DNA of 64,000 nt from Chrysomallon squamiferum. Its lineage: Eukaryota > Animalia > Mollusca. Shown here one piece after another: positions 7,571 through 46,540 of the stretch. The translations under genes were made by a program, and so were the position numbers. The DNA lies in contig CM022674.1 in assembly GCA_012295275.1 (NCBI GenBank), forward strand, positions 6,138,001 to 6,202,000, written 5' to 3'. Below the pieces are notes generated by a model. That model searched no databases. It was not told the origin of the DNA and worked only from the letters and a program-made list of their open reading frames with translations. Position 1 is the stretch's first letter. Every line of letters starts with the position of its first letter.

Positions 7571-10500
7571 ATGTACAAACACACAGTCAAACGTGCGTTC
7601 GCTCTTAGGTAAGTAAATGAATTAAATAATGCTTTTTTTATGGACAGAATAACAGATGCTGGTATGAATGTATGTTTGCATCACGGGAAGGTCGTTTGGG
7701 TTAGCTAAACAGACAGACAGATGTATGTGTGGATACTTTCCTAACTCGATCAGCTGAAAAACTGAACAGACGTAATAAGTGGACAGATGGATGGAAATAA
7801 TTTTATCCTTTATTAAATAGATACAAAATGAAATTATTATTTCTACTATTAACCAAACTGCTAATTCGTTTGCATTTTATTAATAATTATATTCTTTTTT
7901 AAACAAATAATATTACTGCTACTATTACTTCTACTTTTTCTACTACCACTACTAATACTACTAATACTAATATTACTACTTTTACCAATGCAGCTGATAC
8001 TGCTGATGATACTTCTATTGGTACTCTTACCACTACTGCTACTCTGCTACTACTATTGCTACTATTACAACTAGTAACATTAATATTATCGTATTACTAC
8101 TACTACTAATAGAAACCTTAAATCTCCTGATATTGCTACCATTTCTAGTACGCCTGCTGTCACTACTACTACTACCATTACTACTACTACTACTACTACT
8201 ACTACTACTACTACTAGCACTATTGGCACTACTACTACTACTACTACTACTAGCACTATTGGTACTACTACTACTACTACTCTACTACTACTACTAGCAC
8301 TATTGGTAGTACTACTACTGCTGCTATTACTACTATTAAAACTGCTGATATTGTTACTATTACTACCACTATTGCAATTACTTAAATCAAATAATTACTA
8401 CTACTACTACTACTACTACCACTATTGGTAGTATTACTACTGCTGCTGCTGCTACCATTAAAACTATTAAAACTTCTGATGTTGTTACTATTACTACCAC
8501 TATTGCAATTACTGCTGCTACTATTAAGAACAAATGTAATCTTACTACTACTACTACTACTACTACTACTACTACTACTACTACTACTACTACTGCTATA
8601 CTTCTACTTCTACTAGTACTACTACAATTACCACTAATAGTCTTTTACACATGTTCTCTCTACTAATTTTATTCTTTATCAAATATATTTAAAAATCAAA
8701 TAATTACTACTACGACAAGCTGAACTACTACTACTACTACTATTACTACTACCACTATCATTACTACTGCTACTACTTCTTTTACAGATTACTAATAATT
8801 CTATCCTTTACTAAATAGATTACATGGTTAAACTGTTATTATTATTACTATTACTACTACTACTACTACTACTGCTGCAACAACCACTACTATTGCTGCT
8901 TCTGCTACTACTACTTCTTCTCCTCCTTCTGTTACAGGTTAATAACATATGCAGTGTTTCTGCTGTTGGCGCTGAAGACGTCAGCGTCCGTGCTGAAGAT
9001 TAACAGCTTATGGCTGAGCTACGTGGCTGACATTTGTATAACTAGTAAAGTGAACACAACGTGCGGCTGGACGGCTGAGCTGCTGGTTAAACCCAGAGTA
9101 GTCAGACTGCAGGTTATCACAGAGTTGTCTGCGCCTTTCTATTCTTGCGTTTCCTGGATTCTCGCTCTATACTAGACACAACTGACCTCTCTCTCTCTGT
9201 CTCTGTCTGTCTCTCTCTGTCTCTGTCTCTCTCTCTCTCTCTCTCTCTCTCTCTCTCTCTCTCTCTCTCTCTCTCTCTCTCTCTCTCTCTCTCTCTCTCT
9301 CTCTGTGAGTGTGTGTTTCTGTCTGTCTGTCTGTGTATCTACCTCTCTATTTATCAAAAAGTGGGTAATACCGTTACTGAAGCACCAATACCGGTTTTCT
9401 AAATTTTAACGAGTTATGTTGAGAGATGTGTTAGTTGTTAACATAAGAAAATGTTAGTTACTCGGTTGTTGCTAGCGTGCCTTCAGATGCGAGTTCGATG
9501 CTCGTCTGTTCAATGTTCCACGTTTACCTGTTTGATTGCTGACATGTGTGCCATCCTAAGCGACATTTTGGCGACTAGTGATAAGTATTGTCGGTAATTT
9601 GCAAAACCCTACTTACGAACAACATTAACCAGAATAGTCCATTTGCGTCGTAAACTCAAAACAAATCTTTGATTTATTTATTTATTTATTTTATTTTATG
9701 CTTATTCAGATATGGGATGTAGATTTTAAACTGACAAAGGAACTGAATTCTGCCTCGCAGTTTATCTTGGTAAGCAGACTAAAAACCGCGGTCCTGCACG
9801 CGGGAAAAGAACTGTGTCTCCGATTTAAGGCGTCGGTGTACAACCATAAAGAGCTTCGTCGTGATGAGATCAGAGTGAGGGCACGTTTCCTAAAAATATG
9901 CGACTCTACAGTTATCAGCAATACTACCCGTTAGTCTTTTTGTTACATTCATTTTTATTCTTTTTCTTACTTTGTTTGTTTCTTTCTTCTTTGACAGACT
10001 CAAATTATTTTATTTTATTTTATTTTATTTTGTTTTGTTTTGTTTTGTGTTACTGCATTACTTACCACTTACTTACTGATGTATAGTTTTAGGTCAGTCA
10101 GCCTATAACTTCACATCCACGTGGATTGGTGGGTTTGAGTGTCACGTGTGCCTGACACCCAGCACGGATATCTGCGGCGGCTGGGAGGCTGTCATCAAGT
10201 TTAGTCCAGCCCTCAAAAGAATCGACGTACGTTACAGAGATCCACTTTTTTTCACGGATCCACTCTTTTTACAGATTCATTAATCTCCAGTCAGAATTTC
10301 CAAAAAAAAAAAACAAAAAAAAAACACTCCAAAAAACCCCTCAAAAACACCAACAAAAACCCAACAACCCCCCCCCAAAAAAAAACACACACCCGCAACA
10401 GACAGACAAGAAAACAGACAAACAACAACAACAACAAAACAACACAACAACAATCAACTAAAAAGCAGAAAAGCTGATATACTGACAAAGAAGCATATCT

Positions 10501-44000: not shown

Positions 44001-46540
44001 GATAGAATTATTAGTAATGTGTAAAAGAAGTAGTAGCAGTAGTAATGATAGTGGTAGTAGTAATAGTAGTAGTAGTAGTAGTAGTAGTAGTAGTAGTAGT
44101 AGTAGTAGTAGTAGCGGAACTATGTTAGTGGTAGTAGTAATGATTTGATTATATATATATTTAATAAAGAATAAAATTAATACAAGTGCGTAAAAGACTA
44201 ATAGTGGTAGTTGTAGTAGTAATAGTAGTTGCAGCAGTATTAGTGGTGGTGGTCATAGAGGTAGTAGTAATAGTAGTAGTAGTAGAAGTAGTAGTAGTAG
44301 TTGTAGTAGCAGTAGTACTGATAGTGGTAGTGGTAGTAGTAATAGTAGTAGTAGTAGTAGTAGTGGAAGTCTTTTTTGTGGTAGTAGCAGTGATTTGATT
44401 TTATATATATTTAATGAAGAACAAAATTATTTATATTGTGTAAACGACTACTAACAGTAGTAGTAATAGTATGATAAGTATTATTGTTCTTATTAGTAGT
44501 AATAGTAGCATCAGAAATAGTAGTTGTAGCGTTAGTAGCAATAGTAGTAGCACCAGCACCAACTACTGTAGTAGTAATAGTAGTCATATTAGTAGGATTA
44601 GTAGTAATAGTAGAAGTAGTAGTAGGATTAGTAGTAATAGTAGAAGTAGTAGTAGCGGTAATGTTATTTTATAAGTGTGTAAAAGAGTAATAGTATAGTG
44701 GTAGTAGTAGTACAAGTAATAGTAGTACTAGTAGCAATAGTAGTAGTAGTAGTAGTAGTAGTAGTAGTAGTTGTGCTTGTGTTAGTAGTAATGATTTGAG
44801 TTTATATATATATTTAATAAAGAATAAAATTAGTAGAAGTGTACAAAAGAGTAACAGTATAGTAGTAGTAGTATTAGTAGTAGTTCTGGTAGAAGTAGTA
44901 GTAGTATTAGTAGTAGTTCTGGTAGAAGTAGTAGTAGTATTAGTAGTAGTTCTGGTAGAAGTAGTAGTAGTATTAGTAGTAGTTCTGGTAGAAGTGGTAG
45001 TAGTATTAGTAGTAGTTCTGGTAGAAGTGGTAGTAGTATTAGTAGTAGTTCTGGTAGAAGTAGTAGTAGTATTAGTAGTAGTTCTGTTAGAAGTAGTAGT
45101 AGTATTAGTAGTAGTTCTGTTAGAAGTAGTAGTAGTATTAGTAGTAGTTCTGGTAGAAGTGGTAGTAGTATTAGTAGTAGTTCTGGTAGAAGTAGTAGTA
45201 GTATTAGTAGTAGTTCTGGTAGAAGTAGTAGTAGTATTAGTAGTAGTTCTGGTAGAAGTAGTAGTAGTATTAGTAGTAGTTCTGGTAGAAGTAGTAGTAG
45301 TATTAGTAGTAGTTCTGGTAGAAGTAGTAGTAGTATTAGTAGTAGTTCTGGTAGAAGTAGTAGTAGTATTATTAGTAGTTCTGGTAGAAGTAGTAGTAGT
45401 ATTAGTAGTAGTTCTGGTAGAAGTAGTAGTAGTATTAGTAGTAGTTCTGGTAGAGGTAGTAGTAGTATTAGTAGTAGTTCTGGTAGAAGTAGTAGTAGTA
45501 GTTCTGCTTGTGGTAGTGGTAATTATTTGATTTTATATATTTAATAAAGAATACAATTACTAGTAGTGTGCAAAAGAGTAGTAGCAGTAGTAGTAATAGT
45601 ATTTTACAGATTACTAGTAATTTTATAGTAGTAGTAGTAGTAGTAATAGTTCTGTTTTGGTAGTACTAGTGATTTGATTTTATATATATTTAATAAATAG
45701 TTAAAATTACTAGTAGTGTATAAAACAGTAGTAGCAGTAGTAGCAGTAGCAGTAGTAGTAGTAGTAGTAGTAGTAGTAGTAGTAGTAGTAGTAGTAGTAG
45801 TAGTAGTGGTAGTAGTAGGATTAGCAATAGTACCAACAGTAGCAGCAACATGAGTACTATCAACAGTGGCAGTAATAGTAGCAACATCAGCAGTTTTAAT
45901 AGTAGCTGTAGTAGCCGTAGAAGTAGAATAATAGAAACATGAGCAGTAGAAGAAGGAGCAGTAATATTTTACAAATTACTAGTAATTTTATAGTAGTAGT
46001 AGTAGTTCTGTTTTGGTAGTACTAGTAAGTTGATTTCATATATATTTAACAAATAATTAAAATTACTAGCAGTGTATAAAACAGTAGTAGCAGTAGTAGC
46101 AGTAATTGCAATAGTACTCCTGTAATAGTAGTACCACCAGCAGCATCATCTATATTAGTAGTAATAGTTGTAGTAGTATTAGTAGTAGAAGTATTAGTAG
46201 AAGTAGTAGAAGTAATAGTAGTACTAATATTATTTTATATTTGTTTAATAATGAATATAACTATTAGTAATATTTAACAGAAGTAGTAGTTGAATTAGTT
46301 ATAGTAATAAAATTATTTCCATCCATCTGTCCACTTATTACGTCTGTTCAGTTTTTCAACTGATCGAGTCAGGAAAGTATCCATGCATACATCTGTCTGT
46401 CTGTACAGCTACCCGAAACGTCCTGCTCGTAATGGAAACATACATTCATACCAGCATCTGTTACTCTGACCATAACAAGCATTCTTTAATTTATTTACTT
46501 ACCTAAGAGCCAGTGTGCGTGTCTCTGTGCGTTTGTACAT
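41052..46540 (-). CDS. Secreted double-CBM2-like protein, copy E (256 aa, intact)
   Basis: Exons 46540-46503, 43843-43666, 42272-42047, 41875-41742, 41246-41052; phases 2,0,1,0; 771 nt open. MYKRTETRTLALRLITYAAILLLTQKTS...SMWCGGYVAEIC...LWDADIRF...DRCLTFTVS...KKWTGGFECHLC...KWLSGA...NEKWVVFVG...GTCD*. Confidence 0.85.
44862..45500. repeat. 33-bp minisatellite (GTAGTAGTATTAGTAGTAGTTCTGGTAGAAGTA), ~19 copies, in intron 1 of copy E
   Basis: Near-identical units; source of the spurious (VVVLVVVLVEV)n ORF 44796..45530. Confidence 0.93.

Follow-up and report, generated by a model that had tools for sequence, protein, structure and literature searches.

We analyzed a 64,000-nucleotide (nt) window from the mollusc Chrysomallon squamiferum (GenBank assembly GCA_012295275.1, contig CM022674.1, positions 6,138,001 to 6,202,000 of the forward strand), a stretch of AT-rich eukaryotic DNA (∼34% GC) that is rich in microsatellites. 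Next to genes for cellulases of glycoside hydrolase family 9 (GH9), it carries a family of short genes whose predicted products consist of two domains homologous to carbohydrate-binding modules (CBMs) of family 2 and no enzyme. By searching the window with the exons of gene B and building gene models from coordinates, we find four open genes of five exons each:

7571..11317, plus strand: gene B, 253 amino acids (aa); exons 7571-7608, 8938-9112, 9710-9929, 10093-10226, 11123-11317
20860..24100, plus strand: gene C, 257 or 256 aa; exons 20860-20897, 22341-22518, 22914 (or 22917)-23142, 23430-23563, 23906-24100
30977..35482, plus strand: gene D, 256 aa; exons 30977-31014, 32806-32983, 34288-34513, 34661-34794, 35288-35482
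41052..46540, minus strand: gene E, 256 aa; exons 46540-46503, 43843-43666, 42272-42047, 41875-41742, 41246-41052

All introns are of the GT-AG type with phases 2, 0, 1, and 0, internal stops are absent, exon sizes are 38, 175–178, 220–229, 134, and 195 nt, and the products measure 253–257 aa; in exon 3 of gene C, a tandem acceptor 3 nt downstream gives 256 aa instead of 257. These models bear out an earlier sequence-only reading of the stretch, which had described four intact five-exon genes with the same phases and nearly equal exon sizes. They are not chance assemblies, since the exon junctions fall where homologues from Gigantopelta aegis continue unbroken. Each N-terminus is basic and then hydrophobic (best nine-residue Kyte-Doolittle mean 2.4–2.7, weakest in D) and aligns with the N-termini of the G. 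aegis proteins. Two domains follow, with four to six Cys apiece (three in domain 1 of C), and then the stop. The mature proteins would have a mass of ∼25 kDa and an isoelectric point (pI) of 7.0–9.0, compared with 4.5–6.0 in G. aegis.

The G. aegis homologues are endoglucanases in which two to four CBM2s precede the GH9 domain (XP_041377748.1, XP_041377751.1, and XP_041377746.1; here P0002, P0003, and P0007, respectively). Spliced B–E match the N-termini of these three cellulases at 32%–36% identity over ∼240 aa (E-values 1e-32 to 1e-41), and the alignment is collinear from the signal through both CBM2s to the final Cys. G. aegis endoglucanases also head the 17 proteins returned when an exon of the neighboring cellulase gene GH9-1 is used as bait (78%–83% identity on that exon), and the homologies point to a host that is probably a gastropod with kinship to G. 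aegis. The G. aegis proteins pass the Pfam CBM_2 cutoff of 24 bits with scores of 57.8–165 (67.6 bits for the G. aegis homologue). Against an independent profile made from 18 Pfam-positive bacterial CBM2 domains, the spliced products of B, C, D, and E score 36.8, 56.2, 32.4, and 30.9 bits, while the best of 1000 shuffled controls (875 of which received a score) reaches 9.4. Single exons are less informative: two of 16 match CBM_2 (PF00553) in Pfam, both below the cutoff (17.0 and 13.2 bits). A structural model of the G. aegis double domain, a homologue 34% identical and not B–E themselves, has two all-beta domains at a mean predicted local confidence (pLDDT) of 86.5. Its Foldseek matches include 3ndy_E (template modeling [TM] score 0.72) and 6qfs_B (0.69, both by target), with several unrelated beta-sandwich proteins also scoring high; leads in the ESM Atlas are all under 0.9 and are mostly CBM2. 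The sequence-only reading had assigned the domains to CBM family 2, and the assignment is supported here by the collinearity with G. aegis, the bacterial profile scores, and the Pfam and fold matches of the G. aegis proteins. Given this end-to-end homology, we consider as chance a match of exon 3 to the TIFA FHA domain (PDB sequence match, E = 0.006) and the subthreshold single-exon Pfam matches to CRF-BP_N, GATase_7, and HpaP.

In a tree of 46 domains, domain 1 of the window genes groups with domain 1 of G. aegis (support 99/95) and domain 2 with G. aegis domains 2–4 (92/66, a weak grouping on a long branch), so the CBM2 tandem was inherited and not rebuilt. The stem of domain 2 has a length of 1.77 in the window family versus 0.26 for G. 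aegis. The window proteins thus share with the G. aegis enzymes the order of signal, domain 1, and domain 2 and the Cys pattern, and G. aegis domain 1 already lacks the third aromatic of the binding face. They differ in that a linker and GH9 follow in G. aegis, whereas the window genes stop; their domain 2 also lacks the third-position Tyr and evolves much faster. The sequence-only reading had cited molluscan cellulases of the abalone type, with a single CBM; the closest template is instead this G. aegis cellulase with two to four CBM2s.

The manner in which the genes stop points to their origin. In G. aegis the last CBM continues through Cys-Asp-Pro-Thr-Pro-Gly into GH9. In the window, the Pro position is occupied by TAG in each of the seven copies in which the end of exon 5 survives. 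From the CTAG of this stop onward, the DNA resembles, in inverted orientation, sequence that five copies carry ∼320–480 nt ahead of exon 1. Identity to this inverted 5′ flank averages 0.24–0.35 before CTAG and 0.74 after it. The elements concerned are:

11314, 24097, 35479, and 41055: CTAG at the stop of B, C, D, and E, respectively
7046..7134, minus strand: sequence in the 5′ flank of B that is homologous, in inverted orientation, to the DNA after the stop; starts from CTAG
3967, 16181, 20541, and 30494: further inverted homologues of the post-stop DNA

Because the TAG is common to the copies and inverted 5′-flank DNA starts there, one rearrangement probably truncated the ancestor. The old exon end was likely replaced by a single rearrangement or insertion before amplification, a direction that is not proven. 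A CTAG end recalls the termini of Helitrons, and a mobile element is an alternative to fold-back of the 5′ flank as the source of the stop-supplying repeat. B–E are probably the detached front part of a CBM2-CBM2-GH9 cellulase gene of the Gigantopelta type; the family is real and lineage-specific, and likely arose by cellulase truncation.

Were B–E instead alternative 5′ modules, joined to a catalytic GH9 domain by splicing from a GCAG/GT site within exon 5, the phase of that site (phase 1) would match the acceptor of the GH9 catalytic exons, and a GH9 exon relic does lie among the broken copies described below. However, use of the site would remove a terminal Cys conserved in G. aegis, and in gene C the site reads GTTCTT. 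G. aegis keeps Gly-Ser/Ile-Cys-Asp past the corresponding position, and an isoform pair that differs by one 111-aa CBM module places the module boundary further on, after Cys-Asp/Asn-Pro-x-x-Gly, so GCAG/GT was not the ancestral donor. Within the window, no plus-strand GH9 exon was found downstream from B, C, or D; for E, both GH9 genes are on the upstream side. We regard onward splicing as hardly probable. The module boundary of G. aegis, together with post-stop DNA that is foreign to the old exon, favors the stand-alone form claimed by the sequence-only reading, and from sequence comparison B–E very likely end at the stop after the second CBM.

The enzyme half of the presumed ancestral architecture has a likely counterpart in a neighboring gene:

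49380..56230, minus strand: GH9-1, an open 516-aa cellulase model without CBM (PF00759); exons of the 5′ part 56230-56211 (tentative), 55829-55759 (signal), 55431-55354 (tentative linker), 54441-54274, 53905-53718, 53374-53215; exons of the 3′ part 52969-52858, 52164-52017, 51647-51482, 50916-50745, 50060-49870, 49456-49380

Two exons of GH9-1 score 61.5 and 68 bits on PF00759 (cutoff 27.7), and the model has the DAGD and NEVA.DYNA motifs, which we take to be catalytic. Its catalytic part is 72% identical to G. aegis, compared with the 32%–36% found for the CBM genes. No CBM exon was found between the signal exon and the catalytic exons. The signal exon itself is a homologue of the beginning of exon 2 in the CBM genes (80% over 41 nt against B, with the same phase-2 acceptor). 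Since homologues in G. aegis, Haliotis, and Pomacea have an N-terminal CBM2 (below the Pfam cutoff in Haliotis), reciprocal loss of the CBM by GH9-1 is the simplest reading, and a reciprocal split, GH9-1 without CBM and the CBM genes without GH9, is likely. CBMs are missing from one G. aegis model (P0001) as well, but this model may be incomplete. The tentative linker exon of GH9-1 (55354-55431, minus strand) is symmetric in phase 1 and has 26 codons, rich in Ser, Thr, and Ala. Because the reading frame stays open whether or not this exon is included, it could be an alternatively spliced linker.

The arrangement of the copies suggests how the family grew. D and E form a tail-to-tail inverted pair, and C is paired with a broken inverted copy at 28.7–29.5 kb. 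Two homologous palindromic spacers (24100-28700 and 35500-41050), with arms up to 95%–97% complementary, probably drove both the inverted duplication and the conversion of exons. Similarity between copies is mosaic at the exon level (C resembles D in exon 3, D resembles E in exon 4, and B resembles C in exon 5), as would be expected from conversion between copies.

We favor, at a probability of roughly 0.45, the reading that B–E would act as secreted, noncatalytic, bivalent glycan binders in the gut alongside a GH9 enzyme that has no CBM. The predicted signal peptide would direct secretion, and a reduced face formed by the Trp17 and Trp54 equivalents and a neighboring Gly might bind with low affinity, with avidity gained from two domains. 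The preferred ligand would be amorphous cellulose or other beta-glycans over crystalline cellulose. A free CBM presumably cannot target an enzyme to which it is not linked, and the free GH9 would be helped by coating and opening of the substrate, not by tethering.

As described in PMC5935602, the CBM2a of Cex has a cellulose-binding strip of Trp17, Trp54, and Trp72, in which a Gly beside Trp17 selects cellulose over xylan. The equivalents of Trp17 and of the core Trp38 are present in all eight window domains. By the Gly/Arg rule of the same paper (PMC5935602), seven of the eight have Gly three residues past the first Trp and none has Arg. There is also evidence that the genes have been kept as proteins. 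At least 243 substitutions separate the four copies without a single stop, where a neutral simulation gives a mean of 8.0 (P of no stop = 0.0004, for a star tree and open copies only). The flanks predict 9–18 frameshifting indels per pair and none is seen, exon lengths differing by 0, 3, or 6 nt. The C, W, G, and F columns that are invariant in G. aegis are invariant in B–E at 28 of 42 sites, versus 86 of 191 other columns (P = 0.016). The lack of stops and frameshifts and the conserved core therefore argue for retention as proteins; the pattern is that expected of a conserved core with a surface changing freely or adaptively, although function may have been lost very recently.

Several results weigh against the favored reading. 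The strip is incomplete: the Trp54 equivalent is present in six of eight domains, being lost from domain 2 of D and E, where a Trp stands at a shifted position, domain 1 of B has no Gly at the +3 position because of a one-residue deletion there, and the Trp72 equivalent is absent from all eight domains, while domain 2 of G. aegis keeps a Tyr at this site. The comparison with Cex in the sequence-only reading had itself aligned an Asn with the binding Trp72, a mismatch that was overlooked. B–E are therefore not canonical CBM2a modules, and their affinity for crystalline cellulose is likely to be reduced. In a natural Streptomyces endoglucanase (PMC5935602), however, the CBM2 carries just two of these three Trp, which means that an incomplete strip does not necessarily abolish binding. 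Nei-Gojobori ratios of nonsynonymous to synonymous substitution (dN/dS) are 0.76–1.03 in all six pairs, with every bootstrap interval including 1, which is unusual for a protein that binds an invariant substrate such as cellulose. Together, the degenerate face and the near-neutral change weaken a simple role in loosening cellulose or targeting cellulases. Single Cys residues are lost in C and E, no AATAAA or ATTAAA was found within 600 nt downstream from the stop of gene B, and seven of the 11 family loci are broken. These seven comprise 14 exon-level fragments, so that a former count of at least eight pseudogene fragments stands if exons are counted.

A close rival, possible although rather unlikely, is that B–E have been re-purposed as a variable lectin-like repertoire in mucus, immunity, or recognition of microbes and symbionts, with microbial glycans or chitin and not dietary cellulose as ligands. 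It fits the rate of change better than the favored reading does, and the genomic position less well. Frames kept open at a dN/dS of ∼0.8–1, the birth-and-death of copies and their exon mosaicism, the long stem of domain 2, the eroded aromatic face, and the raised pI would all be in keeping with such a role, as would the greater divergence of gene B from the other genes in exons (18%–24%) than in sampled noncoding flanks (13.5%–16%). That last comparison is, however, biased to alignable DNA and blurred by gene conversion, whole-gene dN/dS significantly exceeds 1 in none of the pairs, and the genes still lie within a cellulase cluster. The near-neutral ratios, the broken loci, the lost Trp and Cys residues, and the missing polyadenylation hexamer of B would also suit relics of a truncated cellulase that recently lost their function and are decaying, with the four open copies as survivors. 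We consider this distinctly unlikely in view of the absence of stops (a probability calculated on the open copies), the absence of the expected frameshifts, and the preferential retention of core residues.

More improbable again is a role as decoys: B–E would bind dietary inhibitors of enzymes (polyphenols) and in this way shield the cellulases, by analogy with EHEP of Aplysia kurodai. EHEP offers a precedent in the gastropod gut: it is a 25-kDa noncatalytic protein that binds phlorotannins and protects beta-glucosidases (PMC5271319). It is described as built of peritrophin-A domains yet without chitin binding (PMC10619976). B–E resemble it in being noncatalytic, in their ∼25-kDa mature mass, and in having domains of a carbohydrate-binding type with an eroded sugar-binding face; however, EHEP has the peritrophin-A fold and belongs to another family, no homology is expected, and the parallel is one of analogy.

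Joining origin and function, we suggest with more reserve that a cellulase has undergone fission: the double CBM2 would have been released by one rearrangement and lost from a sister copy. Inverted duplication would have multiplied the free module, and conversion between exons would have mixed the copies, giving a diversifying set of secreted glycan binders used in trans with the bare GH9 or for recognizing microbial glycans. As a complete chain this is unlikely. In discussions of animal GH9 cellulases, binding modules usually figure as gains. Here the opposite is seen: a likely breakpoint, an enzyme without CBM, and an amplified free module lie next to one another. Such a cluster offers a natural test of a debated matter, namely whether an unlinked cellulase benefits from free CBM2s, and of how a binding module drifts to new ligands after release from its enzyme. 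If the fission reading is true, this would be a molluscan accessory or lectin system based on CBM2, with both halves and the breakpoint readable in one cluster.

Stand-alone CBM2 proteins, secreted and without a catalytic domain, are known from plant-parasitic nematodes. These cellulose-binding proteins are effectors of plant parasitism, have a single CBM, and are related to GH5 cellulases. Unlike them, the window family has two CBM2s that probably derive from a GH9 gene, an independent origin; a named nematode example is Mj-CBP-1 of Meloidogyne javanica (PMC4733053). The modules of Cellulomonas fimi Cex (1EXG/6QFS) and Clostridium cellulovorans EngD (3NDY) are matched by profile and, via the G. 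aegis homologue, by fold, and the window domains keep their Trp17, core Trp38, mostly Trp54 equivalents, and the +3 Gly, but have no Trp72 equivalent, a different Cys pattern, and no attached enzyme. Two clusters of complete-looking, secreted-type database proteins also consist of tandem CBM2-like domains. The first (P0113 and P0169–P0173; six members of 538–576 aa) has four CBM2-like domains and the second (P0043 and P0167; 249 aa) has two, both without an enzyme, although P0043 could be a partial model. Like the window genes, they have a signal-like start, only CBM2-like domains, and consistent C-termini, and they group with animal CBM2s, but they are not close to the window family (35.6 and 48.3 bits), fall in separate clades, and are unrelated in origin. 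The existence of such catalysis-free tandem records means that the window architecture is not unique. In the P0113 domains, too, most of the binding Trp are missing, and comparable events may have taken place in other animals.

Closer relatives did not appear. A profile search covered 1.84 billion representatives. P0002 alone scored below 1e-30 in it, and the best 150 of the 570 matches, of which we scanned 47 with Pfam, included no close stand-alone relative. Two word-limited searches, both weak negatives, yielded no scoring protein: one with an exon-3 alignment among longer proteins (540 candidates), the other with the double domain of G. aegis among those shorter than 381 aa (125 candidates). 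A literature search that covered few subscription journals, and is thus weak evidence of absence, found no molluscan stand-alone CBM2 protein; in the sections available of a survey of snail carbohydrate-active enzymes (PMC10295696), CBMs are described only as parts of enzymes.

The seven broken loci and the GH9 relic within one of them are as follows:

1449..1520, minus strand: 3′ tip of exon 4
4349..5905, plus strand: copy A, exons 1, 4, and 5 only, with an in-frame TGA in exon 5
15058..18997, minus strand: exon 1 lacking ATG, exon 2 carrying deletions, and exon 4 disrupted by a deletion and a stop
15349..15435, minus strand: relic of a GH9 catalytic exon with acceptor-side intron, within the preceding copy; 88% identical to the matching stretch of GH9-1/GH9-2
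16586..16628, plus strand: exon 1 remnant without ATG and donor
19395..19598, plus strand: lone exon 5 with frameshifting indels
28714..29450, minus strand: inverted partner of C, with exon 3 (99.6% identical to D), exon 4, and the 3′ tip of exon 5
47308..47552, plus strand: exon 1 and the 3′ tip of exon 3

A second cellulase gene lies at the edge of the window:

59822..64000, minus strand: GH9-2, 3′ exons only, the 5′ end being beyond the window

Its exon at 60363-60555 (minus strand) is 193 nt long versus 191 in GH9-1, with an apparent frameshift before the catalytic Glu motif, and another exon has an unusual 5′ end, longer by 24 nt. GH9-2 would be either a pseudogene or affected by an assembly error, an undetermined base (N) lying nearby. 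The dN/dS of 0.5 between GH9-1 and GH9-2 is a poor yardstick because GH9-2 looks frameshifted.

Antisense to and downstream from gene B, a 64-codon open stretch (11679-11870, minus strand) appears protein-like and has homologues near 24450, 28200-28370, and 35870; it matches nothing in Pfam, and its frame is disrupted in the other copies. For the same two reasons, we rejected as a sixth exon the block resembling an open reading frame on the opposite strand after exon 5. A segment of higher complexity at 2100-2900 (plus strand), with a 114-codon frame and no Pfam match, resembles a decayed DNA-transposon gene. Between B and C lies a transposon of the Tc1/mariner type (13514-14840, plus strand; HTH_Tnp_Tc3_2, E = 7e-9), which has in-frame stops.

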